From the NCBI GenBank assembly GCA_947448795.1, contig CANFOZ010000001.1, positions 52,662 through 116,661 on the forward strand: a DNA stretch of 64,000 nt, given 5' to 3'. Below the pieces are notes generated by a model. It saw nothing but the letters and a program-made list of their open reading frames with translations. It searched no databases and had not been told where the DNA came from. Both the position numbers and the translations under genes were made by a program. Source of the stretch: Bacteroidota bacterium (GTDB taxonomy: Bacteria; Bacteroidota; Bacteroidia; AKYH767-A; JAHEYN01). Shown here piece by piece: positions 9,824-24,350 of this stretch. The first letter of the stretch is position 1. Each line of letters opens with the position of its first letter.

Positions 9824-9842
9824 AAAATCAGAATGAGAGCGG

Positions 9843-9860
9843 GTCCCGAATACTCGGGAC
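9843..9860. terminator. Short perfect hairpin between convergent genes
   Basis: GTCCCGA-ATAC-TCGGGAC, a 7-bp stem, sits in the 93-nt gap between the comM stop and the stop of the minus-strand membrane-protein gene. There is no strong T-tract. Confidence 0.35.
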
Positions 9861-9916
9861 GGTACGGGAGGAAATGAAAATGAGAGCGATGGGAGTAGAC
9901 AAAAACGGTTGGGCTG

Positions 9917-10744
9917 TCAATGCTGAAGTTGAACATCGGAAATGTTAAACTGAGCGTCGTATAAAACTTGTAGCGCATCGCTTGTAATGGCGGAGTCGCC
10001 TCTGAATGGTCTATCTAAATCATAACAAATGAACATAGACATCGCAAACATAACGGCAATGATAAGCTTCATTGTAAATTGAATTTTCAAGTTTTCCATT
10101 TTATAGAAAAAGCTGGAGATGATCGTTAAGAAGCTAAATAAAAAGAGCACATACCAAGTGGACGCTGGTAAATCTTTCTTCGTGTCGTGCAAGCGCATAC
10201 GTCGGAGGTCGGTCAGCTCCCGATACAAGGGGAAGTAGATCTCGTAAAAATAGCGCTCGTCATGCGGCATGTCATACATGGTGTGCACGTGTTCGCGAAG
10301 TCCCATAAAGGCCTGCAGCGTTTTATCCGACGAGTTCCCTTTTTTCATCGCTGGCCATTCATCGTGAATAACAGAGTAGGTGTACTCTTTGATTGATTTA
10401 CGCATGTTCGCCTTGTAGGGTTCTTGCATGTGGTGCGTTTGGCTGTACATGGTGGCTAGTATGTCGGCCTCTCTGCCCACGTTGGTATCCACGGTTTGCC
10501 AAGTGGTCCAAAGGCTTACCCAGACAAAGGTTACTATTAACGAGAAAATCACACCAGCTAGGTTAAAGGTGGTGAGCACCATCTCATTTGAATCTTCACT
10601 TAATTTCCCCTTTGTAAGCTTCAAGAATATAGCAAATCCGATAAAGGTGAAGGAAACATATAGTATAATCCAAGTGGACAGGTTAAGCCAGATGTCAGAT
10701 TTGTAAAAGAATTCCATGTTTTGAATTTGTATGCAGCAAAGCAA
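9917..10744 (-). CDS. Hypothetical integral membrane protein (two TM pairs flanking a ~150-aa soluble region; recollection-level resemblance to DUF4239)
   Basis: 275-aa ORF. It has strongly hydrophobic helices at both ends, and a His-rich soluble middle (HHMQEPY, HVHTMYDMPHDERY). The true start is probably MEFFYKSD..., 9 codons into the ORF. Confidence 0.5.
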   Translation of the reverse strand: MLCCIQIQNMEFFYKSDIWLNLSTWIILYVSFTFIGFAIFLKLTKGKLSEDSNEMVLTTFNLAGVIFSLIVTFVWVSLWTTWQTVDTNVGREADILATMYSQTHHMQEPYKANMRKSIKEYTYSVIHDEWPAMKKGNSSDKTLQAFMGLREHVHTMYDMPHDERYFYEIYFPLYRELTDLRRMRLHDTKKDLPASTWYVLFLFSFLTIISSFFYKMENLKIQFTMKLIIAVMFAMSMFICYDLDRPFRGDSAITSDALQVLYDAQFNISDVQLQH

Positions 10745-11024
10745 ATTTACAATTTGCTGAGGTGAGCTAAGTTCGTTTTTATCAAAAAATTAGTAATTTG
10801 AATAGTATCGCTTATCCAACCTTGATTTTTTACATAGCTTTACAAGTGAACTATATAATGATTTTCAACTTTATGTCATTCGCTAATTTTCGCAAGGAAG
10901 CATTCGCAAATAAATCACATGCCTTTTTAACGTGTTTGTTTTTTGCACTCCTTGCTATTGCTATCGTTTCATCAGTTTTAATAGTAAGTATGTTCAAGGC
11001 ATTTCTTCGCAGGTGAATCATGAT

Positions 11025-12014
11025 ATGGAGGCCTTTATGAACGAAAAGGCGATCGATCCAGGCAAAACGGCTGACGACTTTCATGCTCGTCCTGCACATT
11101 GCCCGAAGGCATTGGTCGGTATTTATATCGAACGGGTTTTAGATGCTGATATCAAGCAATCTTTTTGGGATTATGAATGTACGATTTGGTTTCGTTGGAA
11201 GCCAAGCGAAGTCGATTTTTTGGGCAGGAATAAATTTATGCTAGATGGCCAGATTCCATTCAAAATTATTGATGGATCGATAGCAAGTACCGAGGTTACG
11301 GAGCATTTTAAAATACCTCAAGACAGCTCAGAATATATACAATATTTTGTTCGTGCTAAGAGTTCGAAATTTTTTGATGTTTGCCTCTATCCTGTTGACA
11401 AGCACGATTTAATATTGCAGGTTGAACACAAGTGGCTTGAACGCAACCAGCTGCTTTTGGTGCCCGATACGACAGAATCGAAAATTAGCTCTAGGGTGTC
11501 AGTATGTGGCTATATCAAATCCCCTGAACCCATTATTATTGAGAAGCCCCATCGATATCGTTCATCTAAAGGAAACCCGAATTTTACAGATGGGCATCGC
11601 TTGGTTTTTTCACAAGCAAGGATGGCGATGCATATCAGCAGGGGAGGTGTCTCGAATGTCTTCAAGCTCTTTTTGGTGCTTTATATAGCGGTGGTTGTTG
11701 CCTTTGTGTCTTTTTTTGCATCCGACCCAAGCAGATACGCCGTTGGCGCCTTGTTCACCACGGCGGGTGCTAATTTTATATTAATGTCGAAGCTGCCAGC
11801 GCTACAAGTATATTCTTTTGCCGAGATCCTGTATGCCATGTGCCAAGTGGTTATTCTTTTAATGATCGTTTTTCTTGCCATATTACCGCGAATAACGACG
11901 GTAGATAATCGACCGGATTTCTTTGAAAAGAAGATGCATCTGGCAATCCATTCGAGCTTGCTTCTATTTACTATCGTCCTTAATATCCTACTTATTAAAG
12001 TCGCCTTGCAGTAA
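11025..12014 (+). CDS. Hypothetical membrane protein: ~230-aa soluble N-domain followed by four C-terminal TM helices (topology reminiscent of prokaryotic pentameric ligand-gated ion channels)
   Basis: Start chosen at the internal ATG (MEAFMNEKAID...) of the 10932..12014 ORF. The C-terminus has a TM1-TM2-TM3, short loop, TM4 layout. No signal peptide is evident. Confidence 0.45.
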   Translation: MEAFMNEKAIDPGKTADDFHARPAHCPKALVGIYIERVLDADIKQSFWDYECTIWFRWKPSEVDFLGRNKFMLDGQIPFKIIDGSIASTEVTEHFKIPQDSSEYIQYFVRAKSSKFFDVCLYPVDKHDLILQVEHKWLERNQLLLVPDTTESKISSRVSVCGYIKSPEPIIIEKPHRYRSSKGNPNFTDGHRLVFSQARMAMHISRGGVSNVFKLFLVLYIAVVVAFVSFFASDPSRYAVGALFTTAGANFILMSKLPALQVYSFAEILYAMCQVVILLMIVFLAILPRITTVDNRPDFFEKKMHLAIHSSLLLFTIVLNILLIKVALQ

Positions 12015-12085
12015 AAGAAAGCTAGAAAGAGAGATGCGTAAAAGTTACGGATCTAAATTGCCAATTATAACGCTCTTGCCATCAC

Positions 12086-12730
12086 TTAAAACGGGATGCC
12101 CACTTTCACTCCCCAAAGGAATCGTGCGTGGTTAGTCAATATTGTTTTTTTTGTGTTTTGCACATCCTTTAATTGAGCGAAATAGACTTTGGTATCGCCG
12201 CTGTATGTAGGCATCGAAACGCCTTGTCCTGCATAGAAGTCAGCAACTACGTATTTACCCGCAAACTGGTAGCCTGTTGTGGCAGAAATTTCGAGCGTGT
12301 TGAACTTCATACTCTTGGATCCATAATTGTAGCCACTTGTGCCTGTGCCTTCGTTGAGCGTCCATGTCTGCGACGCATAGGCCATTTCAGGAGCGACATA
12401 GAATCCACCTGGAAATTTAGGGATTTTGTAAATGTAAAAACGAGCCACTGGGTTAATGTAGTAGCCGCTTCGATTGTCATAGCCCTTATTATTAATTTTT
12501 ACCATCGGATTGGTGATGTAGTTCAAATTGACCATGAAGCTCTTATTCTTCTTTGCTCCATAGAAACGCTCATAAGACACAGGCAACCAACCGGCCACCG
12601 CATACAGCGGGTTAGACTTGATAACGTTGTAATTCAATTTAATCTCTTCCTGCGTGGTGGTAGGTTTGTCTTGTGCAATGCCCATGTAGGATGTGCAGAG
12701 CATAACCAAAAGCAACAGTGATTTTTTCAT
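12086..12730 (-). CDS. Putative outer-membrane beta-barrel protein
   Basis: Start at the internal Met gives the signal peptide MKKSLLLLVMLCTSYMGIAQ. The sequence has alternating amphipathic strands rich in Y/G/N and ends in the aromatic ...GIPF, typical of OMP barrels. Confidence 0.55.
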   Translation of the reverse strand: MKKSLLLLVMLCTSYMGIAQDKPTTTQEEIKLNYNVIKSNPLYAVAGWLPVSYERFYGAKKNKSFMVNLNYITNPMVKINNKGYDNRSGYYINPVARFYIYKIPKFPGGFYVAPEMAYASQTWTLNEGTGTSGYNYGSKSMKFNTLEISATTGYQFAGKYVVADFYAGQGVSMPTYSGDTKVYFAQLKDVQNTKKTILTNHARFLWGVKVGIPF

Positions 12731-12883: not shown

Positions 12884-14134
12884 ATGAAAACACGAATGCA
12901 GCTTTTTCTTCGTTTACTTTTTGTCGTTCTGTTGATGAAGGCTTTGTGCTTTTCTTTTAGTCCTGCTCGTGCTGCAGTGACTGCTGCAAGCATCAAAGAA
13001 AGTCGCGGCGACTCTATCCGCAAGCGCTTTGTGGAACCCATGAAAACGCGGTTTGAGATCCAAGCCAACTATGGTTCGCGCAACTCCTTGCTGGTGATTA
13101 CCTCTAGAGGGAATGCGCCCGCTTTTATATCCTATGCGAATCAAAATCCGACCCAGATTGGTGTTGTGGTTTCATTTCTTAATCTTAGTATTCCCGTTTC
13201 TTTTTCACCGTCCTTTCTTTCGAATGGATTGGGCTTGCGTAACATTTCTTTTTCGCCTTCAACCTACGGTAAATGGCTTTGGTGGAACGCCGATTTTAAT
13301 TATAGCAAGGGGTATGGGATAAGTGGTTTTAAAGATCTTTCCAAAGCTTACCTATTGCGCTCGACGGATCTTCAAGCACTGCGCAACGATATTCGCTCGT
13401 ATGCACTTTCATCTTCGCTTACTTTTGTGCCCAATGGCAACCGCTTCTCATCAGCTGCTGTGTTCTCTTTCACGTCTCGTCAGTTGCATTCATCGGGGTC
13501 CTTGCTTATGGGGCTTAATTATCATTTCTCTTCTGTGTTGGCCGATTCGTCTTTACTGCCTAACAATCTTGCAGGTGCCTTTGCTGCTGAGCAGGCTTTT
13601 GTAAATAGTCGTTCAGCATCGGTTGGTATAGCCCTTGGCTATACTTATACCTATGTTGTTGCTAAGAATATCTTTGCGAACATTACCTTGTTGCCATCCT
13701 TGGCAACAGGCATTGGGCGTACTATTGATGTCGCAGAAAAAAAGGAGAAGCACTATCAATTCTTATCGCCTTCAAACACGTTTGGCTATGTTGCACTTGG
13801 ACACAATGGTCAGCGCAGCTATTGGGGTGTGTCATTGAATATGCATACCTATCGCGAAAATCCTGCGGGCGCAAACCTATTCATGAACTTTGTTACACCA
13901 ACGGTGTTCGCTGGTTTCAGAGTAGTCAAGTGGAGCCGCAGCGTTCCGCCTCCAAAGTTAAAAAGAAGTCGGTCTTCTGCCTTTGTACGCGGTCAAAAAG
14001 TGAGTTGGTGGGCAGGTGGAAGCAAGCACAACGGTGTGGTGATTGAGGTCTATAAAAAAGGGTTTTATAAAGTCAAAGAAAACGACACGAAAGAAGAGAT
14101 CGTTTGGGAAGAAAAGGACTTGCTTGCGCAGTAA
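12884..14134 (+). CDS. Secreted/outer-membrane hypothetical protein with C-terminal HVA1/DUF2945-like (Tudor/SH3-like) module
   Basis: 416 aa. An N-terminal signal peptide is present (LFLRLLFVVLLMKALCFSFSPARA). The body is beta-rich and S/N/Y-rich. The last ~60 aa (GQKVSWWAGGSKHNGVVIEVYKKGFYKVKENDTKEEIVWEEKDL) match the small DUF2945/HVA1 fold pattern. Confidence 0.5.
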   Translation: MKTRMQLFLRLLFVVLLMKALCFSFSPARAAVTAASIKESRGDSIRKRFVEPMKTRFEIQANYGSRNSLLVITSRGNAPAFISYANQNPTQIGVVVSFLNLSIPVSFSPSFLSNGLGLRNISFSPSTYGKWLWWNADFNYSKGYGISGFKDLSKAYLLRSTDLQALRNDIRSYALSSSLTFVPNGNRFSSAAVFSFTSRQLHSSGSLLMGLNYHFSSVLADSSLLPNNLAGAFAAEQAFVNSRSASVGIALGYTYTYVVAKNIFANITLLPSLATGIGRTIDVAEKKEKHYQFLSPSNTFGYVALGHNGQRSYWGVSLNMHTYRENPAGANLFMNFVTPTVFAGFRVVKWSRSVPPPKLKRSRSSAFVRGQKVSWWAGGSKHNGVVIEVYKKGFYKVKENDTKEEIVWEEKDLLAQ

Positions 14135-14143
14135 GATGATTAC

Positions 14144-15226
14144 CTAAGATGTTTTTCGGATGCGCTCGCTGTAAACGAGTTTCGAAATTTCACCCAAGGT
14201 GGCGCTGAGTTGCTCGAGCTTACTACCCTTGGTCATTGCACACAAAAGGTATGGTTTGTTATCCACATAAAAGATAGCGCATTCGTGCAACTGCCTAAAT
14301 CCATTAGGATTTTTTTCAGGCGAGGTGCCATGTTCACCGAATTTGTCAACCATAACTACGTTGCTTGGAACACCCTGTTTAAATCCCTTTTCGAATTTTG
14401 ATTGTGCCAACATTTCCATGGCAAGCTCAGCATGCTCCTCAGAGATCATGGCGCTGTTGTAGAGCATGCGAAACAACCTTGCGTATTGCGCAGCAGAAAC
14501 ACCAAAATCAGGATTGTTGACCTCCGTAAAAGGGATCTCTAAATCAGCAAGTATTTGTTTGAAAATCGATACGTTCACAACTTGATGTAAAGTGGCTGTT
14601 GCGAGGTTGTCGGAGTCGATAATCATGGCTGCGATAAGCTCTTGCACGGTGTACGTTTGGCCCGATTGAATCTTGAATTGCTCTTGAAAGGTTTGGCTTC
14701 TCACCGATTGGCGCGACCCAGCAATCTGAATTTTTTTAGATAAAAAAGAGGCGTCTCGGTCAGCTTGAATCATCAAGGTAATCAAGGTGTTTACCTTCAT
14801 TAAACTTGCTGGGTAAAAGCGCAATTGGTCGTTTATTGCAAACTCCTCGCTCGAACTCAAGTCTCTGATATACACCGACGCATCTTCGATTTGCTGACTC
14901 TTCTTTTTGTCTTCGATTAATGTATTGACGGCTTGCTGCAATTGTATCATGCGCTGATCGCTCAAAGCCTGTGAACCTAATAGCAAAAGGGGTTTTATTA
15001 ACTGAAAACGCTTGGAGCGAATGGGGGAGGAAAGAGTTGCGGGAGCCGCTTCGGGAGTGCTTTGCAAAATTGGCGTGCGATCCAACTTCTTATGATAGCA
15101 GGATAGTATGCTGATAGAAACCCAAGAGGAACTTGCTGCAACGAGCAAGAGTAGAAGAACAAATAACCACGTTTTTTTCTTTTGCATACAAAGTTTGTAT
15201 ATACAAATGTATGGCGCTTTTTTCAC
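14144..15226 (-). CDS. Class A beta-lactamase-related serine hydrolase (variant third box)
   Basis: 360 aa with an N-terminal TM/signal anchor. An S-x-x-K motif (ASLMK) is followed ~57 aa later by an SDN motif (IDSDNLA). The KTG box is replaced by DKFGEHG. The start may be the internal MQKKKTWLF... Confidence 0.6.
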   Translation of the reverse strand: MKKAPYICIYKLCMQKKKTWLFVLLLLLVAASSSWVSISILSCYHKKLDRTPILQSTPEAAPATLSSPIRSKRFQLIKPLLLLGSQALSDQRMIQLQQAVNTLIEDKKKSQQIEDASVYIRDLSSSEEFAINDQLRFYPASLMKVNTLITLMIQADRDASFLSKKIQIAGSRQSVRSQTFQEQFKIQSGQTYTVQELIAAMIIDSDNLATATLHQVVNVSIFKQILADLEIPFTEVNNPDFGVSAAQYARLFRMLYNSAMISEEHAELAMEMLAQSKFEKGFKQGVPSNVVMVDKFGEHGTSPEKNPNGFRQLHECAIFYVDNKPYLLCAMTKGSKLEQLSATLGEISKLVYSERIRKTS

Positions 15227-15353
15227 ATGAGTGTCATTTCAAAATCATTATGTTGTTAATCAAGTGTTTAATTAAATTGTGGAATCGTGGCGTCTAATCT
15301 ATTCAATGAAATTGATTGGTTCATCCTATGTTTTATGGGATGAAAAAGCAATC

Positions 15354-15390
15354 CACAAAAAAACCCCGCAATTGCTTGCGAGGTTTTTTT
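15354..15390. terminator. Bidirectional rho-independent-type terminator
   Basis: An A7 run, then CCCCGCAA-TTGC-TTGCGAGG (one mismatch in the stem), then a T7 run. It lies just downstream of the minus-strand M43 peptidase gene stop. Confidence 0.6.
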
Positions 15391-15406
15391 ACATCTTGAA
15401 AAAATA

Positions 15407-16399
15407 TTAAAGTTGTGCGAAAGTGTTACGTGGTCCGCCTGTTATGAAAACAGCTGCGGCGCGTGCTTTCTGTCCCGCGGTGAACATGTACATGCACGCA
15501 TCGTCAGTATAGTCCATGTAGTTCATGGTCATCTCCACCGGAGTGCCAGTGCAGGTGCTAAGGTGCGGGTAGGTAGGGCAGCCGTAATTTGCAGTGTTGT
15601 GATTCGGCGTGTCGTTCACGAGATCACTTCCGCAAGTAGCATCACCCCAGATGTGGCGAAGGTTGAGCCAGTGGCCAACTTCGTGTGTTGCAGTTCGGCC
15701 AAGGTTGTATGGAGCAGACACCGTGCCTGTTGTGCCAAATGCGTTATCGTCAATTACCACCCCATCGGTTGTTGATGAGCCACCAGGAAACTGCGCATAA
15801 CCAAGGATGCCACCCGAGAGGTTACATACCCACAAGTTAAGTTTGGTTGTTGGTGTTGTTGGATCGATACCGCCTTGGGACGTTTTCTTCATCGCGTCGT
15901 TGGTGGTCCAAGAGGTTTTGGTAGTGCTCTTGCGAACAACGGAGCTCAGCACGAAGGTTATACCCATGCTGCCAGAGCGAAGGCTTTGAAATAGCGCTGG
16001 TGTATTGTTGTAATCGGTATTCAGCGCTTTGAAGTCGAGGTTCAGGCGATCAATCTGAGATTGAATCTGTGTTTGCGAAATGTTTTGTGCAGTGGTTTTG
16101 TATAGCACGTTCACGACCACTGGAATTTCTATCGTGCCGTCGGCAAGAAGACGTTGATTCCCTTTGTTGTCGATGAAGTCTTGGGTGAAGCGTTCGATCT
16201 CTTCCATGCGTCGCGCGAGTGATGGGTTATGCGAGATTTGCTCTTGCAGCACCTCGTAAGATGCGCAACGACGCTCTCCGAGGGAAGGTGTTTCTGTTTC
16301 TTGATTACCAATCACCGGTAAGGTGGTCAATGGTTTTTCTTTTTGGCAGGCACTTGCGAAAAGCAAGACGGCCGCGCCGAGTAGGGTGAGTTTTTTCAT
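15407..16399 (-). CDS. M43 (pappalysin/cytophagalysin-type) zinc metallopeptidase lipoprotein
   Basis: 330 aa. Lipoprotein signal MKKLTLLGAAVLLFASAC, and a zincin motif HEVGHWLNLRHIWGD of the extended HExxHxxGxxH type. A downstream Met-turn is present. Confidence 0.75.
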   Translation of the reverse strand: MKKLTLLGAAVLLFASACQKEKPLTTLPVIGNQETETPSLGERRCASYEVLQEQISHNPSLARRMEEIERFTQDFIDNKGNQRLLADGTIEIPVVVNVLYKTTAQNISQTQIQSQIDRLNLDFKALNTDYNNTPALFQSLRSGSMGITFVLSSVVRKSTTKTSWTTNDAMKKTSQGGIDPTTPTTKLNLWVCNLSGGILGYAQFPGGSSTTDGVVIDDNAFGTTGTVSAPYNLGRTATHEVGHWLNLRHIWGDATCGSDLVNDTPNHNTANYGCPTYPHLSTCTGTPVEMTMNYMDYTDDACMYMFTAGQKARAAAVFITGGPRNTFAQL

Positions 16400-16513
16400 C
16401 GCTTGTATTTTTGGTTTGACTCAAATATACATTAGAAGATGCAATTGAAAAAAAAGAATGAGTGATCCGGCGGTATTCGATAAAAAACTGGCGAAAAATA
16501 AAGAAATCCGGTC

Positions 16514-17548
16514 TTAACCACCTAACGTGGCCAGGAAGTTTTTGAACTGTTCAACCAATGTTGGATAGGTGCTTAAGCTGGTTAGATCGCACTTCTCGGT
16601 GACCTCCGTTCCAATGAACATCAACTTCTCATTGTTGAACTTGGTGTACATGAAAATATCTTTCTTGATGTTGAACTTCTCCTTTGTGTCAATCACCTCG
16701 GGGCGGGTGTCGATCACAAGCGGCGAGAGGTTCAGAAACTCTGTCGGCACCTTGGTGTCTTTCATGAGCAGCACCGAATGGCTGTCGGAAAACTGATCGT
16801 GAAGCAGTTCCGTGGCCTTGAAATCGGAATCGGAGCTGTTCAGCAGGTCCATCACGTGACTGAACTTGGCGCCTTGGTGCTTCATTTTCTGCACCTTGAT
16901 CTCGCGGATGGTGACGAGTTTGTATTTGATGATGAAGGCGATGGAGGCCAAGACCTGCGCGAGTTTGTCTTCGTATTCCACACAACGCTTCTGAATCTCC
17001 TCTTCGGTGAGGTTGATCTGGTAGTGTCCGATCTCGTTGCGTTCCGGCACCCAGAAGTCGAGGGTTTCGTAGAATTTCTTGTTCAACGCCTCTTTCATTT
17101 CGGGCATGAAAGGCTCGATGCTGAGCTTTTCGAAGAGGTTGCCTGAGGCGCGGATGAGCCAGGTGAAGTTGCCCAAGGAGAGCACCGTGATGCGCTGCTT
17201 GAACTGTCCGCTGAATTCCGATGGAATCTCGAAGTTCTTGTGGATGCGTTCCTCCCATAATTGAGCGAGCATAACGAAGCTGAGATATTGCATCGTTCGT
17301 TCAATGGTCTTGAAAAGCTGATCCAAACGGCCGCGATCGAGCTGTCGCATCGATCCGGAGAAGAGGCGGCGCATTTCTACTCCAATCGGCCAAGGCAGAT
17401 GTTTAATGATTAAATCGGCAAGTACACGCGTGTCAGGGCCATCGTCCGGATCGTCCTCGTCGCTTAGCAGGTATTTGGCCAAAGAAGGCTTGTGTTGAAC
17501 CATGGATTCGAACACTTTTTTAATCAATTCTTCGTTGACGTTGGCCAT
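16514..17548 (-). CDS. Hypothetical protein, likely co-transcribed partner of the upstream STAND NTPase-WD40 gene
   Basis: 344-aa ORF that starts 12 nt after the stop of the 1282-aa gene on the same strand. It is soluble, with an acidic patch SDEDDPDDGPD and no recognisable catalytic motif. Confidence 0.5.
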   Translation of the reverse strand: MANVNEELIKKVFESMVQHKPSLAKYLLSDEDDPDDGPDTRVLADLIIKHLPWPIGVEMRRLFSGSMRQLDRGRLDQLFKTIERTMQYLSFVMLAQLWEERIHKNFEIPSEFSGQFKQRITVLSLGNFTWLIRASGNLFEKLSIEPFMPEMKEALNKKFYETLDFWVPERNEIGHYQINLTEEEIQKRCVEYEDKLAQVLASIAFIIKYKLVTIREIKVQKMKHQGAKFSHVMDLLNSSDSDFKATELLHDQFSDSHSVLLMKDTKVPTEFLNLSPLVIDTRPEVIDTKEKFNIKKDIFMYTKFNNEKLMFIGTEVTEKCDLTSLSTYPTLVEQFKNFLATLGG

Positions 17549-17560
17549 CTTTAGGAGTGC

Positions 17561-20500
17561 TTATTTTAATCCGTATTCTTCAATCTCACGAGGGGTGAAG
17601 GACCTTGGTTCGCCGAATACTTTTTTTGTTCGAACTAGCTTTACGATTTCATCTGGTTGAACAGGCAATTGATGAATGGTTTTGCCATCGCTCAAGTAGA
17701 GTGTTTTTCCATCTTTTGAAAAATCGCCCTTGTAGCCATTTACCGAAAGCAATTCGTGTCCACCAATGGTGCGAAGACGAACGAAGTCCTCTTCTGTAGT
17801 GCAAACTAACTTGCCATCAGAGGAAATGGTAATTTTTTTAGGGCTTTTGATTTCCGGCGCATTCGTGTTACTCCAGTTAGCATCCGTCTTAAGCCATGGA
17901 CCGTAAGGAATGTTTGTCCACAGATTGTAAGAAGATTTGAAATAGGAGATGCCTCCGGAACTTGTGGTACTTTTTTCATAAGGCTCAAATACGACCGTTG
18001 ACTCGTTGTCACTGAAGTATGCATCTGCAATTGCGAAGGGAATCTCGTAGGCATCATTCAAGGTATTGATCAATTCGCCTTTTAGATTCCATATGCCCAT
18101 AAGGCTATCGTCGGAGGCGGTGATAATGAATTTGCCATCCTTGGAGAAACGCGCTCTGTTAATCTTTTTGTGATGACCGCTCAGCAATGCATATGATTTA
18201 GTTTGCAAGGTGCTGCTATCATATCTCCACACCTGTGCAATGGAGTCTTGGGTTGTCACGAAGAAGGTGCTTGCCGGGGAGAATGCAATACCAGTTGGTT
18301 GTCCCTTGACACCTTCTAAAGTCAGGCGTTTAGGATGCAGTCCCTTTGCATTCAAAGCGTAAAGGGCGATGTGAGCGGAATCTTCGGGGTAACCCAATAA
18401 AAGATCATCGAATGACACGAAACTTGATCCACCTGTTTTATCGGACTGCAGGGTATGTGCTTTTTTAGTGATGGCTTTTCCGGTATGAACATCGAAGACA
18501 TGGATGTCAGCCTCTTGATTCGGCTCTAGCTCCTGTATGATGATCATTTTTCCGGTGCCTGAAAAATCAGCAATTTGCTCTGCATCTTTGTTTATTGATG
18601 TATAGCTGAAGAGCTCCTTGAAGTTGACATCTAGCACCTTTACCGTTCCGTTTTTCATGCAAATCGCATGCTGACCATCTGGCCCTAATTTATGTTCCAA
18701 TGCGTTTTGGATTGCACTTTGGTAGCTCGGTTTCCAAATACTGACGGTGTTCCCGTTCATGCTGCCCGTCACTACAAATTGATTATTTGCGGTGAAGGAC
18801 ACTTTCTCATCAGCGAAAGTTTCCGTCATTCTGCGGAACGTGGTATGCTTTCCTAGCGGTGTATAAAGCTCGACCGTGCGTTCGTTATCATCTACCGTCA
18901 GTGCGTACTTGGAGTCATTCGATAGCCTGACTAAATCGCCCTTGATGCGATGGCTTAGTTGACCATCCGCTCGGTTGTATATATCCGTGTATTCTCTACC
19001 ACTCATAACATAGATGCTTTCTCCATCGGGAGAGAAGGACATATTCGCTCCTTCGAAGTTGCCTTTGATCGTTAGCTGCAGCTTGCCGCCAATGGTAAAC
19101 AAACCAATGCAAGAGTCGTTTTTCGCCAGTAATTCTTGCTCATCCGGCGAGAGGCTTATTGCATCCGAGAAGCCTTTGATAATCTGTAACTTTTTCCCTT
19201 GTCGATTATACATAGAAACTTGTCGAAAATTAGTCTCGGTTTTTAGTTCGGTTTCCGACTCGCTGTAGGTTGTAAAAGCCATGCCGGTAAACAGCATGTT
19301 GCCATCCCTGCTGAATTCGATGCGATTCGACAGTTGATGCAGTTCGAAGCTATTAACCAAGCGACCACCGGCATCGTATTCGAGTATGCTTGCGTTGCCA
19401 AAACTGTACAGCCCCATCGCAAGCAGTATGTGATTGTCCGCAGTTAATTTTGCTCTGGCTCCAGCATGCTCTTTGTTTTCTAAAGCCAAAACTGTTTTCA
19501 GCTCTTTGTTAAGTATGAAAACCGAATCCAGCTGCACTAGCATGTACATTTCTTTTAGCGCCTGAATCTGGAATTCGCTCGCCACCTTACGACTGTTGAT
19601 TTTGTTGCCATTGAAATTCCAAACACTGATTTCCATGTTTGAGTTATTGGCACTTGCAGGCCCAAGCACGTCGATAAGCACAAAGGTGTTAGGCGTGGCA
19701 AGCAGGGGAGGTTTCGATCCTGCAGCAGGAAAAGTATAGAGATGATTCTCGTGATTTAGCTTAATGGTTTTTGTCAGGGATACTCCTGTTTCTTTGAAGC
19801 TATAAAAACGCAAGGTGCTGTCGTCGCTGGAAGTAACCATGTGCTTACCTGATTCATCAATCAAGTAATCCTTTCCCGGCACGTTGAGATAAAACGGTCC
19901 ATTCCGATACGCGTTGATCAAGGCCTTCTGAATCAACTCTCCCTTGGGATTCAATTCATAGGCTTTTTCAGCAAGAAGGTATGCGAGTGTCGGATCCTCA
20001 TCAACCTTAATCAGCGACATGGCCGCTAATTCATTCGCGCGTGTCAGCTGATTCTGTTGATAGAAATAAAAAGCAACGGCACCTACCAACAGCATCAAAC
20101 TCAATAAGGAAACAAGCGAAACACGGCGCTTCAGACGACGGTTCGTTTGGATGATTGTCCTGCTTTTTTGCACAAAGCCCTGTAAGGATTCATCCAAAAA
20201 AAGTTGCTTCTCGTAGGTGGCGAGGTAATTCAGATCGTCCTGATTAAGCAAGATGCCGCGCACCTGAAATTCTTGATGGCGATTGGTGATCAGCTGACGA
20301 ACCTGCAGCAGTTCTTTCTCTGTCAGCGTTATTTTCTCATAAATCTTAGCTGCGAGCGAATCGTGGCGTAACTCGTATTTATCCTTTTCGTCTTTGTCGC
20401 GCAGAATCCGCAGATTGACAAATAGATTGACAAAGTGCTCGATCTCCTTGTCTGTAAGGTCTTGGCCCAAAGTACGTGTGAAATCGCCCGCTTCCTGCAA

Positions 20501-21409
20501 AGACAATTGGCGTTTCGTTCCTTCTGTTGAAACAAAACTTTTCAGCACACTGACCGCCTTGTTCGCTTCGGGAATGGTTGCCAGCTGCTCTTCCAGGAAA
20601 TCGGCGAGCACATCCGAGATGTTACCCAGCTCTTGTAACATGCTGTTGCGAAAGCCGATTTCGTTCGGATTTCTTTTGACAGCCAATTTGTAGAGCTTGT
20701 CGAGGAAAACCTGCAAGTAGGTCAATTCAACCTCGGAGCGCTCGGGTGATATCTTGTCGAGCAGACTTTGTGCAAAGCCCTCTTCCACAGGGATGTTGAA
20801 CACCCTGCAAGGTCCGAGGATGGCTTCCTGGGCTGCCGTGCGCGTCATCTTCTCGATGCGGATTCTGTTTTGGAAAAACTCCGGAATCTGTTCCTCAAAA
20901 CGGCTCAGATTTTCAAGGTACTCGCCGCGTATGATGAAGATGAACTTACAAGAGAGGCCGGCTTGGATGACCGCTTTGAGTTCGTCGATGAAGTGATCGA
21001 TCTCTTCCTTGTTGCCGAAGATGAACAGCTCCTCGAACTGATCGAAAAGCAGGTAGATGGGTTTGAAGTGATCGAGATATAACGACTCGATACACTTTTT
21101 TAATCTTGCATTTTCTTTGATCGGGGTGATGGCTTGCTTGCGTATCGTATCAGTCAATGAACGCGTCATGTTGTCGCCGCGTCTCACCAGGATGGGCATC
21201 CAGTCGCTCTCGTTGAATTTGTTGGCCAAGCCGCATTGAATGAGACTCGTCTTGCCTGTGCCTGAGGCACCGTAAACCAGCAGCATGTTGCTCTCGAATA
21301 CGCGTGCATAGAGTTCTTCAATTTCTTTTTCACGACCGAAGAAGATCTCGCGGTCGGCACGCGTGAAGCTATCCAGAAACTTGAACGGAGATGACGTGGT
21401 TGCTTGCAT
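17561..21409 (-). CDS. Membrane-anchored STAND-type P-loop NTPase with large C-terminal WD40 beta-propeller region
   Basis: 1282 aa. The N-terminus has FFGREKEIEELY followed by Walker A VYGASGTGKTSL and Walker B IYLLFDQFEELF. A helical region follows, then a single TM helix RRVSLVSLLSLMLLVGAVAFYFY near aa ~440-465. After that come ~800 aa of beta-propeller repeats with a canonical WD40 unit (LSGHHKKINRARFSKDGKFIITASDDSLMGIWNL). Confidence 0.7.
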   Translation of the reverse strand: MQATTSSPFKFLDSFTRADREIFFGREKEIEELYARVFESNMLLVYGASGTGKTSLIQCGLANKFNESDWMPILVRRGDNMTRSLTDTIRKQAITPIKENARLKKCIESLYLDHFKPIYLLFDQFEELFIFGNKEEIDHFIDELKAVIQAGLSCKFIFIIRGEYLENLSRFEEQIPEFFQNRIRIEKMTRTAAQEAILGPCRVFNIPVEEGFAQSLLDKISPERSEVELTYLQVFLDKLYKLAVKRNPNEIGFRNSMLQELGNISDVLADFLEEQLATIPEANKAVSVLKSFVSTEGTKRQLSLQEAGDFTRTLGQDLTDKEIEHFVNLFVNLRILRDKDEKDKYELRHDSLAAKIYEKITLTEKELLQVRQLITNRHQEFQVRGILLNQDDLNYLATYEKQLFLDESLQGFVQKSRTIIQTNRRLKRRVSLVSLLSLMLLVGAVAFYFYQQNQLTRANELAAMSLIKVDEDPTLAYLLAEKAYELNPKGELIQKALINAYRNGPFYLNVPGKDYLIDESGKHMVTSSDDSTLRFYSFKETGVSLTKTIKLNHENHLYTFPAAGSKPPLLATPNTFVLIDVLGPASANNSNMEISVWNFNGNKINSRKVASEFQIQALKEMYMLVQLDSVFILNKELKTVLALENKEHAGARAKLTADNHILLAMGLYSFGNASILEYDAGGRLVNSFELHQLSNRIEFSRDGNMLFTGMAFTTYSESETELKTETNFRQVSMYNRQGKKLQIIKGFSDAISLSPDEQELLAKNDSCIGLFTIGGKLQLTIKGNFEGANMSFSPDGESIYVMSGREYTDIYNRADGQLSHRIKGDLVRLSNDSKYALTVDDNERTVELYTPLGKHTTFRRMTETFADEKVSFTANNQFVVTGSMNGNTVSIWKPSYQSAIQNALEHKLGPDGQHAICMKNGTVKVLDVNFKELFSYTSINKDAEQIADFSGTGKMIIIQELEPNQEADIHVFDVHTGKAITKKAHTLQSDKTGGSSFVSFDDLLLGYPEDSAHIALYALNAKGLHPKRLTLEGVKGQPTGIAFSPASTFFVTTQDSIAQVWRYDSSTLQTKSYALLSGHHKKINRARFSKDGKFIITASDDSLMGIWNLKGELINTLNDAYEIPFAIADAYFSDNESTVVFEPYEKSTTSSGGISYFKSSYNLWTNIPYGPWLKTDANWSNTNAPEIKSPKKITISSDGKLVCTTEEDFVRLRTIGGHELLSVNGYKGDFSKDGKTLYLSDGKTIHQLPVQPDEIVKLVRTKKVFGEPRSFTPREIEEYGLK

Positions 21410-21465
21410 CGAGATGCAATTTATAGAAAAAATCGTACTTTTACTAAAGCAGAAAAAACAAAGTC

Positions 21466-22347
21466 ATGGAGCCTCAAATTCAAAAAACCAGCTCGCATTG
21501 GTTTCGCGTGATGCGGTATTTCTTTTTCGCCACTTCGGTCGTTTTGTACCTTTCTAGCTTTGTTTTTTTTCAGGACCTCGCGATGTTGTGCATGTTCCTC
21601 TGCATGCTGGGCGCTGTGGTCGTGGAGAGCATGGTGGGCAAGAAACACAAGCGCATGATTCTGCTGAGTCTCGGTTTTCTTATTTCCGATGTTGTCATTA
21701 CTTCGCTGCTAGTCAATCATCCGGATTACGATATGTGGAGTCGTTTCCGCATGTTACTCGGCGTCTTTATCTTTTCACTGCTTTCTCCGCTCATCACCGA
21801 GGTAAAACATTACCCGAAGATTTTTCTAGGGGCCTTGGGTTTGTTAATAATCGGCGTGTTTTTTAAAGTTTCTCATTTTCCAGGCGCTTCCGTGATTTTG
21901 GTTGTGAGTGTTTTTTTTATGACGATTGTTTTCATCGTTCAATGGTTCTATTCCTTTCGTTTCCTGAAAACGAATTTGCTGCTGATGTTCGCAAGTTTGT
22001 TGTGTAATTTCGTGGTCATCATTTTTTATCTCGGATGGCTCTTCCGCACGATGCATTGGCAAGGGGCTGCTATTTTCACCTTGAACAACTACTTCGCCCC
22101 CTTGTTCGGTCTTGTATCGGCCTCCTTAATCATCGGTGTGCAGATGAACGATTTCACGAGTTGGCTCGAGAGTCAACGCAAATACCTGGTGAACAACATC
22201 CTCATCCCTTGGTTCGTCGTTTTTCTCATCGGTGGCTGGATGCTGCTCTTTGAGCAATCCTTCAATAACCTTATGATCGGTGCGAGCAACGTGGCGCACA
22301 ATCCTTTCGGCATGCAGGATTATTCCATCGACGATTTACCTAAGTAA
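21466..22347 (+). CDS. Polytopic integral membrane protein (unknown function)
   Basis: 293 aa with at least 7 hydrophobic helices. Its stop is 6 nt before the TPR-PP2C gene, so it is probably co-transcribed. Confidence 0.55.
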   Translation: MEPQIQKTSSHWFRVMRYFFFATSVVLYLSSFVFFQDLAMLCMFLCMLGAVVVESMVGKKHKRMILLSLGFLISDVVITSLLVNHPDYDMWSRFRMLLGVFIFSLLSPLITEVKHYPKIFLGALGLLIIGVFFKVSHFPGASVILVVSVFFMTIVFIVQWFYSFRFLKTNLLLMFASLLCNFVVIIFYLGWLFRTMHWQGAAIFTLNNYFAPLFGLVSASLIIGVQMNDFTSWLESQRKYLVNNILIPWFVVFLIGGWMLLFEQSFNNLMIGASNVAHNPFGMQDYSIDDLPK

Positions 22348-22352
22348 GGCAG

Positions 22353-24350
22353 ATGTCTTCAGTCGAAACGTTTCGAGCTCGCGTCCGCGAATTATGGAAT
22401 CTGCGCTACAGCGATTCTCGTCAACTCGGTGTGCTGGGTGCTGAACTAATTTCTTCAGGATCGGTACATAAACAAGAGCACCCTTCGACAAGCTCAGGGA
22501 CCGGCCCTTCGACAGGGGTTCGACGGGCTCACCCTGTAAGCTCAGGGACCGGCCCTTCGACAGGGGTTCGACGGGCTCACCCTGTAAGCTCAGGGAGCGA
22601 GCGAGAAAACACGCGGGCCTATGGCAAATTGTTTGTCGCCATCTCGAATTTCTTCAATTCGAAGGATGAGCATGTGCTCGAGTATCTCCTCGATAGCTAT
22701 GCATCTTTTGCAAAATTGAACGATGCCGATGGCTTGGGAAAAGCCTGTGCCTTTTTGGCAAGTGTATACGACAACTATGGTGAATACGAAACGGCATTGC
22801 GTTATGCACAAGAAGGTCTTCGTCATGCTGAAACCACGAAGGATGAGGAGCTCGAAGCCGATGTACATGCCAATGCCGGCTTGATCTACACACGCATTTC
22901 AGATCTCGAGCATGCAGAGCAATCGTTTCTGAAAAGCCTGACTATCCGCGAACGCATGGGCAACCACCGCGCCGTCGCATCTTCTTTAAATCTCCTCGGA
23001 AGAACCTATTCACTCGCTAATAAATTTGAACAAGCGCTTGACTACTACAATCGAAGCTTGACGCTGCGCATCGAACAGCAAGACAAGGGTGGAATTCCCT
23101 GGACTTACATCGGCATGGCGAGTGTGTTCGAGCGAATGCAGGATTTTGCATCGGCCTTGGATTACTATGGGAAAAGTGCCGCACAAAGCAAGGAGAACAA
23201 AGATGTACGGGCCAATTTGTATTGCTTGTTGGGCTCCGGCAAGATCCGATTGAATTACAACGAGCCCGAGCTCGCAAAGCTTGAGTTGCAGGAAGGACTG
23301 CAGATTGCTGAGTCGATCAAGAGCAAGCCGCTCATGTACGATTTTCACCAAGCGCTCTCCAAGGCGTATGAGTTGCTTGTCGATTATCAACAGTCTCTAA
23401 ATCACCTGCGCCTTTTTCAGGAGTTGAAAGAGGAGGTGCTAAGCACCGAGACAACCAACAAGATGAAGCATCAGCAGATGAGCTTCGATATCGAGCGATC
23501 GCGCCAAGAGGCCGAGATCTTCAGGTTGCGCAACGTGGAACTTAAAGAGGCGTATGACAAGATTGAAGAGAAAAACAAAGCGATCACCGATAGCATCAAC
23601 TACGCTTTACGCATTCAACAAGCGATTTTGCCATCCAAGGCAGTGATGGCGCAAGGCTTGCCTGAGCATTTTGTGTTGTATCTCCCAAAAGACATTGTAT
23701 CCGGTGATTTCTATTGGTTCGGAGAGCAAGAAGGCTTCAGTATTGTAGCGGCTGTCGACTGCACCGGACACGGTGTTCCCGGCGCTTTCATGAGCATGGT
23801 AGGCAGTAGTTTGCTCAATCAGATCGTGCTCGAAAAAAACATACTCGCGCCTGATGCTATCTTGTCTGCGTTGCATCTCGGTGTTACGCATGCATTGCAA
23901 CAACACGGCACTGCCACTGCTTTTGGCGAAAAAACCCGCGATGGCATGGACATCGCCTTGTGCGTGCTGCAAAAAAGTGCGAACGGTTATCGTCTAGCCT
24001 ATGCAGGTGCCAATCGGCCTTTGTATCACATTCGCCAAAGCCTCTTGAACGAGACAAAGGCCACCAAGCTATCCATCGGTGGGGCAGATGAGGGTGAGGC
24101 ACGCGCATATACAGCACATAACATACAGCTCGAAACAGGAGATGCGTTCTACATCTTCAGTGATGGATATGCGGATCAGTTCAGCGCCTCCGACCAGAAA
24201 ATGATGACACGCCGATTCAAAGAACTGCTGCTCGAAGTGCAGGGACATTCCATGGTTGAACAGGAGCAGCGCCTCCGCACATTCTTCTTGGAATGGCGTG
24301 GAGAGGCAGAGCAGACCGATGATGTGTTGGTAATCGGCGTGCGCGTATAA
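22353..24350 (+). CDS. TPR-repeat / coiled-coil protein with C-terminal PP2C-type (SpoIIE/RsbU-like) serine phosphatase domain
   Basis: 665 aa. TPR-like helical repeats span aa ~100-340, then a coiled coil (EEVLSTETTNKMKHQQMSFDIERSRQEAEIFRLRNVELKEAYDKIEEK). SpoIIE motifs follow (SGDFYWF, VDCTGHGVPGAFMS, YIFSDGYADQF, DDVLVIGVRV). The N-terminal region contains a 16-aa exact duplication. Confidence 0.75.
   Translation: MSSVETFRARVRELWNLRYSDSRQLGVLGAELISSGSVHKQEHPSTSSGTGPSTGVRRAHPVSSGTGPSTGVRRAHPVSSGSERENTRAYGKLFVAISNFFNSKDEHVLEYLLDSYASFAKLNDADGLGKACAFLASVYDNYGEYETALRYAQEGLRHAETTKDEELEADVHANAGLIYTRISDLEHAEQSFLKSLTIRERMGNHRAVASSLNLLGRTYSLANKFEQALDYYNRSLTLRIEQQDKGGIPWTYIGMASVFERMQDFASALDYYGKSAAQSKENKDVRANLYCLLGSGKIRLNYNEPELAKLELQEGLQIAESIKSKPLMYDFHQALSKAYELLVDYQQSLNHLRLFQELKEEVLSTETTNKMKHQQMSFDIERSRQEAEIFRLRNVELKEAYDKIEEKNKAITDSINYALRIQQAILPSKAVMAQGLPEHFVLYLPKDIVSGDFYWFGEQEGFSIVAAVDCTGHGVPGAFMSMVGSSLLNQIVLEKNILAPDAILSALHLGVTHALQQHGTATAFGEKTRDGMDIALCVLQKSANGYRLAYAGANRPLYHIRQSLLNETKATKLSIGGADEGEARAYTAHNIQLETGDAFYIFSDGYADQFSASDQKMMTRRFKELLLEVQGHSMVEQEQRLRTFFLEWRGEAEQTDDVLVIGVRV
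22491..22586 (+). repeat. Perfect 2 x 48-bp in-frame tandem duplication inside the PP2C gene
   Basis: AGCTCAGGGACCGGCCCTTCGACAGGGGTTCGACGGGCTCACCCTGTA occurs twice back-to-back and is GC-rich. Partial 10-11-nt copies flank it on both sides. It encodes SGTGPSTGVRRAHPVS twice. Confidence 0.85.

Follow-up and report, generated by a model that had tools for sequence, protein, structure and literature searches.

A two-gene locus of Bacteroidota encoding a predicted membrane-spanning nSTAND1-WD40 protein and a conserved HEPN-like partner

To our knowledge, every bacterial STAND/NLR-like immune sensor that has been characterised is cytoplasmic and has its effector fused to the sensor. The Avs proteins, in particular, are soluble, single-chain proteins that sense phage proteins in the cytoplasm. 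In the bacterial HEPN-STAND(-OB/S1) fusion proteins, the HEPN domain is N-terminal on a soluble STAND protein (Anantharaman et al. 2013, PMC3710099). In the EACC1-caspase system, the gene 5' of that for a caspase-fused protein encodes a small protein (~110 aa, ~13 kDa) whose only TM helix is conserved and rich in glycine (Kaur et al. 2020, PMC7159879); the neighbouring caspase cleaves this pore-forming propeptide (PMC7159879; Evans et al. 2025 preprint, PMC12642450). The locus described here differs from the characterised immune sensors in that it is predicted to be split across the membrane, with the sensor outside and the ATP switch inside, and in that it has a separate, highly conserved partner.

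The locus lies in a 64,000-nt stretch (hereafter, the window) of contig CANFOZ010000001.1 of a Bacteroidota bacterium (assembly GCA_947448795.1, positions 52,662 to 116,661) and consists of two ORFs on the minus strand, on which all features of the pair discussed below are located. The larger ORF (17561-21409; Pfam nSTAND1 E 3.9e-42) encodes a protein of 1282 aa, and the ORF of the 344-aa partner (16514-17548) is separated from it by a spacer of 12 nt, GCACTCCTAAAG (17549-17560), exactly as the initial annotation had placed and sized them. No terminator-like site was found in the spacer, and the two genes are thus probably co-transcribed. A 100% identical copy of the 1282-aa protein (P0270) is present in assembly GCA_947449325.1. 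The pair had been described as sitting at the edge of a block of secreted hypotheticals, next to comM, which is roughly correct: genes for an M43 peptidase, a beta-lactamase-like protein, a DUF4421 protein, a bestrophin and a comM-type Mg-chelatase are located downstream, and the opposite flank contains ABC transporter and MutS genes. The genes for a 293-aa polytopic membrane protein (21466-22347) and a TPR-SpoIIE (PP2C) phosphatase identified by Pfam (22353-24350, plus strand) comprise a divergent two-gene unit. The phosphatase is a recurrent, not an obligatory, neighbour, being present in 13 of 43 loci in one count and in 8 of 24 in another, with homologs near the pair in the curated loci L002, L003, L004, L012 and L013.

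The N-terminal part of the large protein (aa 8-381; 20267-21388) is a P-loop NTPase of the STAND class, as proposed initially, and belongs specifically to the nSTAND1 family (Pfam PF20703; 145.7 bits against a cut-off of 27.1, E 4e-42), with 371 of the 379 profile positions covered. The motif FFGREKEIEEL (aa 23-33) and the intact Walker A (GASGTGKTS, aa 47-55; 21245-21271) and Walker B (LLFDQFEE, aa 120-127; 21029-21052) motifs are all present as originally quoted, as is the acidic patch SDEDDPDDGPD of the partner (aa 29-39); among homologs of the NTPase, FDQFEELFIFG and GxSGTGKS are nearly invariant (alignment A2). The protein begins directly with the NTPase and lacks an N-terminal effector domain, and in this clade, the nSTAND1 protein contains no effector domain of its own. 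A single TM helix (aa 430-450; 20060-20122) follows, with a Kyte-Doolittle maximum of 2.31 (19-residue window) at aa 430-448, i.e., slightly upstream of the position first assigned to it (aa 440-465). An equivalent helix was detected in all complete partnered homologs that were inspected (all 7 full-length proteins of one comparison, and 34 of 34 in another). Given the basic stretch RRLKRR on its N-terminal, cytoplasmic side, the helix is predicted to leave the ATPase inside and the propeller region outside, in support of the layout initially envisaged.

The predicted periplasmic part starts with a three-helix stalk (aa 456-503; 19901-20044), delineated by the AlphaFold2 model and a sliding identity profile and 92-95% identical to that of the closest relative, which is followed by tandem WD40 beta-propellers (aa ~507-1250; 17660-19891). 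The model of aa 456-1282 (pLDDT 79.6) includes the stalk and ~65 beta-strands, and the best Foldseek matches for the propeller region are tandem WD40 double propellers (2ymu, E 6e-27, then Utp21, Aip1 and Apaf-1), which confirms the earlier assignment of ~800 aa to propeller blades. Pfam WD40 matches the protein with 64 bits against a cut-off of 27. Only one repeat, the unit quoted initially (aa 1074-1108; 18086-18190), is canonical in sequence, and homologs contain ~14 regular repeats. The type of sensor differs between loci that share the same chassis, with single or double WD40, GldM-like and CarboxypepD_reg-like domains.

Conservation decreases from the partner through the NTPase to the sensor, the last step being by far the largest. 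In the comparison with the closest relative, identity is 92% for the partner, 92% for the NTPase and 42-43% for the sensor, with the break at aa ~500-520; over 591 locus pairs, the median values are 66%, 56% and 29%, respectively. Compared to the closest relative, dN is 0.045 in the NTPase and 0.55-0.60 in the rapidly diverging sensor. Synonymous divergence is raised in the sensor as well (pS 0.81 vs 0.46), which cassette replacement fits as well as positive selection. Partners that are 96-97% identical adjoin sensors that are only 28-39% identical, and the partner itself is unusually conserved among its homologs (60-92% identity).

The 344-aa partner contains neither a TM helix nor a signal peptide, its highest Kyte-Doolittle value (1.68) falling in a buried helix, and accordingly is predicted to be cytoplasmic. 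It represents a family of more than 1000 homologs (831 representatives of clusters at 50% identity) for which no model is available in Pfam, NCBIfam or PADLOC: searches of these collections yielded nothing above threshold, and the initial Pfam search gave no match at E <= 1. The sequence and the structural model suggest that the protein comprises a HEPN-like helical domain (aa 40-208; 16925-17431), delineated by invariant residues, sub-threshold Pfam matches and model topology, and a small, OB-like beta-barrel (aa 210-312; 16613-16921). In an alignment of 30 diverse standalone members (A3), the only invariant columns are E83 (codon at 17300-17302), R170 and N171, whereas H175 is conserved in at least 90% of the sequences; the last three residues belong to the motif E-R170-N-E-I-G-H175-Y-Q (17018-17044) within the helical domain. 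HEPN domains are defined by an Rx4-6H motif in which the arginine is followed by N, D or H (PMC3710099), and R170-N171-E-I-G-H175 conforms to this pattern. In the model, the motif appears to close a helix and enter a flexible loop ahead of the last helix, with the acidic residue in an upstream helix, and the HEPN topology has been described in the same way (PMC3710099). Matches to five Pfam HEPN families were found, the best being HEPN_RiboL-PSP (E 5e-5, in 8 of the 30 members), Apea (7e-4) and Swt1 (2e-3), all below threshold; for the 344-aa protein itself, the RiboL-PSP score is 15.7 bits (E 0.015) against a cut-off of 28.4. Foldseek comparison of the partner with PDB gave nothing significant and no HEPN match, HMM searches against PDB sequences gave no match, and the confidence of the model is low exactly around H175. 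The HEPN matches are convergent yet sub-threshold, and we therefore denote the domain HEPN-like rather than assign it to a named HEPN family. The initial annotation had found no assignable motif in this protein, had considered an effector or signalling role and had listed HEPN among the folds to look for; with these hallmarks of HEPN RNases, the partner is plausibly an effector.

The two additional motifs of the partner are family-wide: LNLSP(L/F)xID (16709-16735), inside the OB-like domain, and PWPIGxE(L/M)RRLF (aa 52-63; 17360-17395). Because the latter is conserved in standalone members and in those fused to CHAT or AraC domains, it is a candidate scaffold element or interface with nSTAND1.

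The partner is a constant companion of this nSTAND1 clade. An nSTAND1 gene is located beside or near it in 59 of the 61 assessable metagenomic loci (immediately downstream in 51 and within 5 kb in 8), and all curated loci (L001-L018), including those of the CHAT-fused and AraC-fused relatives, are paired in the same manner, so the proposed partnership is borne out and the pairing is kept across genomes. In L009/L010 and L011, the start of the nSTAND1 gene overlaps the stop of the fused gene.

In these distant relatives, which still adjoin nSTAND1, the partner module is fused to a CHAT protease or to AraC, in the latter case either alone or together with a cyclase (of class III). The E/R/H triad is retained in 35 of 47 standalone members and in only 1 of 61 output-fused ones (Fisher p 5.5e-17), whereas scaffold positions such as P276, D280 and R60 are conserved in both groups. 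The loss of the triad upon fusion lends indirect support to a putative R/H-dependent, metal-independent RNase activity. Judging from the sequences, the partner appears to be an RNase effector or, in members that have lost the catalytic residues, to act as an adaptor for protease, transcription factor or cyclase outputs.

Taking together the domain identities, topology signals, gene linkage, motif and fusion pattern and conservation gradient established here, we propose, with moderate confidence, that the two genes form the core of a STAND signalling system that spans the membrane and has a HEPN-type RNase partner; the RNase activity, a physical interaction of the two proteins, the ligand and a role in conflict or defence are inferred. 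Under this proposal, the nSTAND1 NTPase would be anchored in the inner membrane by its single helix, with the ATPase in the cytoplasm and the stalk and two propellers in the periplasm. Binding of a periplasmic ligand by the fast-evolving propellers would license nucleotide-dependent oligomerisation of the NTPase at the inner face of the membrane, and the oligomer would gather the partner via the family-wide scaffold motifs. Clustering of the partner could then build a composite HEPN active site (putative E83 / R170-N-x3-H175), the output being RNA cleavage that might halt the growth of the cell, kill it, or shut down an invader's expression. In the fused relatives, the triad-less module would act as an adaptor that delivers the CHAT protease, the AraC DNA-binding domain or the class III cyclase. 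All three are outputs that are activated by dimerisation.

The Avs/NACHT affiliation suggested by the initial annotation is not supported, given that the score for the NCBIfam Avs4 model (NF041815) is 25.4 bits, with a cut-off of 1500, and that PADLOC yields no defence match for either protein, only P-loop-level noise (IetA, E 1.7e-4). Nor is the distribution island-like, as had been envisaged: the flanks are housekeeping and vary between genomes, and defence matches are sporadic: the 129 proteins encoded around 24 loci include a single R-M pair and a few PDC candidates, the remainder being housekeeping. The partner is absent from the phage, plasmid and viral-contig (IMG/VR) collections searched, and the loci display neither recurrent co-localisation with defence genes nor mobile carriage. 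The chief support for a defence role comes from the quick turnover of the periplasmic sensor; this role is kept conditional here because of the lack of Avs/PADLOC membership, of islands and of mobile carriage, the conservation of the partner and the AraC and cyclase outputs.

These same features are compatible with a physiological function. The propellers might sense an envelope, surface or environmental cue and, through the same machinery, elicit a regulated, non-lethal response, namely selective RNA processing in this case and AraC-dependent transcription, cNMP synthesis by the cyclase or CHAT proteolysis in the relatives. We regard this alternative as serious, albeit unlikely. It gains from the strong conservation of the partner across its numerous homologs, which far exceeds that of typical toxic effectors and counts against the defence reading, and from the chromosomal location among housekeeping, variable neighbours and the lack of mobile carriage or a PADLOC match. 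Outputs such as AraC and class III cyclases, which are typically used in signal transduction, suggest regulation, not suicide; the recurrence of the TPR-PP2C phosphatase, the presence of an outer-membrane beta-barrel-like gene directly next in the operon in five lineages, and the GldM-like periplasmic domains of one paralog point in the same direction. However, the extreme turnover of the sensor on a conserved chassis would be unusual for a fixed ligand and is typical of variable non-self recognition. Furthermore, CHAT-caspases and HEPN domains typically serve as effectors in conflict systems (PMC7159879, PMC3710099), and it was in predicted counter-invader systems that nSTAND1 was defined as a family (PMC8195603).

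The RNase component of our proposal is weakened by the failure of any HEPN profile to pass the Pfam threshold and by the weakness of the model around H175. The sub-threshold profile matches, together with the lack of a HEPN match in Foldseek, would also fit a non-enzymatic partner, i.e., an adaptor, a chaperone or a regulator of nSTAND1 (an assembly factor or inhibitor) in which the E/R-N/H residues serve binding or structure. The module is clearly a non-catalytic scaffold in the triad-less CHAT-fused and AraC-fused relatives, and PWPIG..RRLF and LNLSPxxID lie away from the putative active site. Nevertheless, we consider this version improbable: retention of the triad mostly where no output is fused is hard to reconcile with mere scaffold stabilisation, an R-N-x3-H motif that terminates a helix and leads into a loop is the specific catalytic signature of HEPN, and the system would be left without an output because the nSTAND1 proteins of this clade have no effector domain of their own. 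A part in gliding/type IX secretion or in Tol-Pal-like envelope maintenance, with the propeller as a housekeeping periplasmic protein, appears extremely improbable. The weak TolB match (E 0.011), a GldL_N match in the neighbouring 293-aa protein (E 2e-4), the GldM_3rd and GldM_4th domains of a paralog and the Por_Secre_tail proteins near some loci could be taken to indicate such a part, but the TolB score (TIGR02800) is 14.7 bits against a cut-off of 343, so the protein is not a TolB-like propeller, the GldL_N match is sub-threshold and located in a polytopic membrane protein, and the flanking genes are not conserved T9SS genes. Moreover, we know of no described T9SS or Tol-Pal machinery that includes a STAND NTPase with a HEPN, CHAT or AraC module.

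A broader proposition, which we consider possible if rather doubtful, is that the Bacteroidota and some Gemmatimonadota harbour a widespread, undescribed class of transmembrane NLR-like receptors with hypervariable periplasmic sensors, one universal HEPN/OB-like adaptor and swappable outputs. If so, bacteria would possess an "outside-in" STAND pathway to which the characterised cytosolic systems (Avs, bNACHT and the Apaf-1 type) offer no parallel, and its output would come from the RNase site of the adaptor itself or from a fused CHAT caspase, AraC transcription factor or nucleotide cyclase. Confirmation would add a new adaptor domain to STAND signalling, show how bacteria link periplasmic recognition to cytoplasmic STAND oligomerisation, and reveal a natural experiment in output swapping. 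The question is directly testable because the CHAT-type system has cultured carriers, namely Saprospira grandis, Aureispira anguillae and Flavilitoribacter nigricans.

The system is of the STAND-plus-effector type, its adaptor/effector belonging to a family that lacks annotation and its sensor being predicted to face outwards. It shares with the predicted nSTAND1 counter-invader systems the NTPase family, a C-terminal repeat superstructure as the presumed sensor and, in related systems, caspase/CHAT effectors (Kaur, Iyer, Burroughs, Aravind 2021, PMC8195603). In those systems, an EAD, Death-like or effector domain is N-terminal to the NTPase (PMC8195603), whereas here the N-terminus is bare, the effector/adaptor is a separate HEPN-OB-like protein without a Pfam model, and a TM helix is predicted to place the sensor in the periplasm. 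The EACC1-caspase system is likewise membrane-associated and consists of two genes, for a constant small component and a variable multidomain protein that may include nSTAND1; the partner is not an EACC1 protein, being a soluble, 344-aa protein with a helical domain and a beta-barrel, a different size and fold without a TM segment or a Pfam match at E <= 1. With Avs and bNACHT, the locus would share the logic of a STAND switch, sensor repeats and a nuclease or protease effector activated, as we propose, by oligomerisation; it differs in the extracytoplasmic sensor, the effector provided in trans and the lack of a match to the Avs4 model.

The HEPN-STAND(-OB/S1) proteins are similar in that an OB-fold-type domain functions as one unit with a HEPN RNase and a STAND NTPase. 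In the present case, the HEPN-like domain and OB-like barrel form a separate polypeptide with extra family motifs, the STAND protein is membrane-anchored, and the HEPN module, where its catalytic residues are lost, appears to have been put to use as an adaptor for CHAT, AraC and cyclase outputs. In the Apaf-1 apoptosome, too, two WD40 propellers follow a STAND ATPase (PDB 3sfz, 3shf, 3j2t; Foldseek E ~4e-20 to 9e-20 for the propeller region), and recruitment of the effector in trans, with activation by induced proximity, would be another shared feature; the CHAT-caspase relatives sharpen the parallel. The locus lacks a CARD or Death-fold adaptor. Apaf-1 is soluble, senses cytosolic cytochrome c and recruits caspase-9 via CARD, whereas here the sensor and the switch are separated by the TM helix, and it is the HEPN-like partner that would be recruited.

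The two genes of the pair lie on the minus strand, the gene for the 1282-aa large protein at 17561-21409 and that for the 344-aa partner at 16514-17548, with a 12-nt spacer between the two ORFs. An identical large protein is on record in the MAG assembly GCA_947449325.1, where the surrounding gene order is unchanged. Neither gene has a paralog within the window, an Rfam scan of the window recovered 0 RNA families at gathering score, and scans for sigma-70 promoters and terminators gave no more matches than expected from shuffled sequence and were thus uninformative. A 10-mer, AATTGCATCT, occurs twice in the 64 kb, both times on the minus strand: at 21412-21421, where it precedes the nSTAND1 start codon by 3-12 nt, and at 16437-16446, 38-47 nt upstream of the next gene, which encodes an M43 peptidase. 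The number of matches expected by chance is 0.26, and 2 were reached in 3 of 100 shuffles; the 10-mer could be a promoter or leader element common to both genes, or a chance match.

All the motifs that the initial annotation quoted from the pair are present where it placed them, and its reading of the large protein as a membrane-anchored STAND NTPase with a large beta-propeller region is borne out. The Pfam family nSTAND1 (PF20703) covers aa 8-381 (145.7 bits against a threshold of 27.1), and the Walker A (GASGTGKTS) and Walker B (LLFDQFEE) motifs are intact and nearly invariant across homologs; there is no effector domain N-terminal to the NTPase. The predicted single TM helix corresponds to the sole strongly hydrophobic segment of the protein, aa 430-450 (Kyte-Doolittle hydropathy 2.31), preceded by RRLKRR, and a TM helix with a basic N-terminal flank is found in 7/7 full-length partnered homologs of the first set and in 34/34 complete metagenomic ones. 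Given the positive-inside rule and the ATP requirement of the ATPase, the N-terminal half should face the cytoplasm and the C-terminal half the periplasm. In the AlphaFold2 model of aa 456-1282 (pLDDT 79.6), a three-helix stalk is followed by ~65 beta-strands, and the best structural matches identified by Foldseek are tandem WD40 double propellers (2ymu, E 6e-27, then Utp21, Aip1 and Apaf-1). In homologs the WD40 units are regular and number ~14; in the degenerate window copy, one repeat is canonical. No DNA-level repeat homogenisation of the WD40 array was detected in the window; a modest 123-nt array (73-75% identity) is present in one homolog. The suggested affiliation with Avs did not hold, the Avs4 score being 25 bits against a cut-off of 1500, and TolB scored 14.7 bits against 343. 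Searches of PADLOC and NCBIfam returned P-loop-level noise only (IetA, E 1.7e-4) and, from these noise-level or sub-cut-off scores, the protein is therefore neither an Avs member nor TolB.

The homologous loci were gathered by exact-protein look-ups and a metagenome scan; a single-query scan of species genomes gave 3 loci. In every curated locus, including those of the CHAT-fused and AraC-fused relatives, an nSTAND1 gene adjoins the partner gene, in either order, and the stop of the fused gene and the nSTAND1 start overlap in L009/L010 and L011. Eighty metagenomic loci were sampled without bias, and the 61 of them with at least 700 nt downstream are assessable; among these, nSTAND1 is encoded immediately downstream of the partner on the same strand in 51, at a distance of 0.8-5 kb in 8, and is absent near the partner in 2, both on short contigs. 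The two-gene unit first noticed in a single genome is a conserved neighbourhood, with nSTAND1 beside or near the partner in 59 of the 61 loci. Five metagenomic loci contain two nSTAND1 genes. The window order, with nSTAND1 first, occurs in none of the 80 metagenomic loci and is confined to the window lineage, L001 and L012, which also have the long double-propeller form.

The partner shows no above-threshold match in Pfam, NCBIfam or PADLOC. It has more than 1000 homologs and, among the best 120, all at least 60% identical, each one with a source name is a hypothetical protein from Bacteroidota; an exhaustive profile search with the family yielded 831 representatives of 50%-identity clusters. 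The AlphaFold2 model (pLDDT 81, pTM 0.85) is helical over aa 1-208, has a beta-rich domain at aa 210-312 and closes with a helix at the C-terminus. A Foldseek search of the PDB with this model found nothing significant, only weak uS12 (OB) matches confined to the beta domain, and profiles of the full-length family (A1) and of the helical domain (A3) matched no sequence of a solved structure except contactin (E 1.5), which is spurious. Identity with EACC1, which has been linked to nSTAND1 in the literature, was rejected given that EACC1 is a ~13-kDa single-TM protein. A BASS-like amyloid signal was also dismissed: the similarity between the partner C-terminal QFKNFL and the nSTAND1 N-terminal PFKFLD is too short, and PFKFLD is part of the generic nSTAND1 profile.

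Among 30 diverse standalone members of the partner family, 23-50% identical to the window domain, only E83, R170 and N171 are invariant, and H175 is at least 90% conserved. The HEPN signature is Rx4-6H, typically with a polar residue after the arginine; a helix further upstream carries an acidic residue, and helices 2 and 3 are often separated by inserts (PMC3710099). The R-N-x3-H of the partner conforms to this signature, including the polar residue. In the model, E83 is within helix 72-104, helices 110-164 intervene, helix 168-171 terminates at R170/N171, and H175 is in a flexible loop followed by helix 182-202, an arrangement that fits the published HEPN description. In relaxed-E Pfam searches with the 30 members, HEPN families came out on top, namely RiboL-PSP in 8/30 (best E 5e-5), Apea in 4, Swt1 in 2, MAE_28990 in 2 and Csm6_HEPN in 1, all below threshold, as are the two best matches of the window partner itself (RiboL-PSP, E 0.015; MAE_28990, E 0.042). 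Of the folds for which the partner was to be queried, HEPN is favored by the residues and the model fit, although the Pfam matches are sub-threshold and the structure search gave none.

The strongest argument for HEPN is evolutionary in kind and comes from sequence comparison with distant relatives, in which longer proteins end in the entire partner module. At their N-termini, these proteins have either a CHAT caspase-like protease, whose His/Cys dyad is intact in the one example inspected, or an AraC HTH, alone or together with a class III nucleotide cyclase. Most of the CHAT-fused clade belongs to Saprospiria (Aureispira, Saprospira grandis, Lewinellaceae, Flavilitoribacter), and some members belong to Gemmatimonadales. 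The E83/R170/H175 triad is retained in 35/47 standalone representatives as opposed to 1/61 of those fused to an N-terminal output domain (Fisher p 5.5e-17). The scaffold motifs PWPIGxELRRLF and LNLSPxxID are conserved in both groups alike, with P276 invariant in 103/103. We conclude that the partner domain is HEPN-like, without assigning it to a named HEPN family, and it is probably catalytic in the window clade.

Compared with L012, the closest relative of the window pair, the partner and the NTPase are each 92% identical, the TM helix 90% and the periplasmic region 42-43%. The drop is abrupt, at aa ~500-520 of the large protein; across this break, dN rises from 0.045 to 0.55-0.60 and synonymous differences from 0.46 to saturation. 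Because synonymous differences are saturated past the break, replacement of a cassette and positive selection in situ appear equally likely as the source of the sensor divergence. Over 591 locus pairs, the median identity falls from 66% (partner) through 56% (NTPase) to 29% (sensor, the periplasmic part), an ordering that is true of at least 589 pairs, and some pairs combine sensors 28-39% identical with partners 96-97% identical. Such a pattern characterises a conserved core for signalling and effector function joined to a recognition domain with fast turnover.

Alternative sensors, GldM-like domains and, in a split-gene version, a CarboxypepD_reg-like domain, are also found on the nSTAND1 chassis. 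In L005/L006, a paralogous nSTAND1-TM protein (14062-16137) carries GldM_3rd and GldM_4th, periplasmic domains of the gliding/T9SS motor, instead of WD40; its gene is directly upstream of the nSTAND1-WD40 gene, 5 kb from the single partner gene, and one partner may thus serve several receptors. In L017, a CHAT-type locus, the nSTAND1 protein is divided over two genes (8975-10792), for the NTPase (354 aa) and for a 241-aa protein with the TM helix and the CarboxypepD_reg-like periplasmic domain, followed by genes for a lipoprotein-like 262-aa protein and an S41 peptidase, and preceded by one for a 586-aa membrane-anchored coiled-coil protein. In L018, the nSTAND1-WD40 gene beside the AraC-fused module (9021-12393) is apparently split into ORFs of 123, 84 and 805 aa, as expected of a pseudogene or of an error in assembly or reading frame.

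No neighbour recurs other than a gene for a TPR-SpoIIE (PP2C) phosphatase, present in 8/24 and 13/43 loci in varying orientation (window 22353-24350, plus strand; L002 13115-14827; L003 5955-7886; L004 5940-7883; L012 1-2678), which may be an accessory regulator of the system. In the window lineage it is preceded by a gene for a 293-aa polytopic membrane protein with ~7 hydrophobic segments, the unit spanning 21466-24350 on the plus strand. The phosphatase gene contains a perfect, in-frame 48-bp tandem repeat (22490-22596, plus strand; 2.2 copies, 100% matches), whose translation repeats SSGTGPSTGVRRAHPV close to the N-terminus of the protein; it resembles a recently duplicated segment or a linker that varies in length. 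In five lineages with the common order, partner then nSTAND1-WD40, a gene for an OMP beta-barrel-like protein lies directly 3' of the latter (L002 11969-13108; L003 12162-13277; L007 12055-13068; L018 12393-13463; one JGI contig). The products are homologous (337-379 aa, weak OMP_b-brl matches), and in the L007/L008, JGI and L018 loci 1-2 further uncharacterised proteins of 415-470 aa are encoded behind it, which hints at an envelope-spanning assembly; no homolog of this third gene was found anywhere in the 64-kb window.

CHAT caspase, AraC and class III cyclase outputs are all activated by dimerisation, and their fusion to a seemingly catalytically dead module fits an induced-proximity adaptor. 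The linkage of the genes, their domain content and the residue patterns are direct observations. In the mechanism that we propose on top of them, a putative ligand would bind the periplasmic propellers and elicit nucleotide-dependent oligomerisation of the cytoplasmic nSTAND1 domains; the oligomer would cluster the partner via its scaffold motifs, an interaction that we infer, and clustering would form a composite HEPN site for RNA cleavage, a predicted RNase activity with a presumed phenotype.

The turnover of the sensor, the HEPN and CHAT outputs and the literature setting of nSTAND1, which is that of conflict systems (PMC8195603, PMC7159879), suggest the role in defence or conflict that the initial annotation proposed for the pair. 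The genomic context speaks against part of that proposal: the flanks are housekeeping genes that differ between lineages, defence-library matches are sporadic among 129 flanking proteins from 24 loci, so that neither a defence-island setting nor an island-like distribution of the pair is upheld, and the partner was not found in phage genomes, plasmids or IMG/VR contigs. Physiological outside-in signalling is a serious rival, favored by this chromosomal, housekeeping context, the AraC and cyclase outputs of relatives and the high conservation of the partner.

In Pfam, NCBIfam, PADLOC and the full-text literature, we found no description or model of the partner family, nor any account of its constant pairing with a TM-anchored nSTAND1 clade or of a switch in its role, from active HEPN to adaptor for other outputs or the reverse. 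Related arrangements are known: STAND and HEPN domains are combined in fused, soluble proteins (PMC3710099), nSTAND1 is named in predicted conflict systems (PMC8195603), and computational work on DGR targets has noted TM-anchored STAND proteins whose sensors are extracytoplasmic (PMC10907252).
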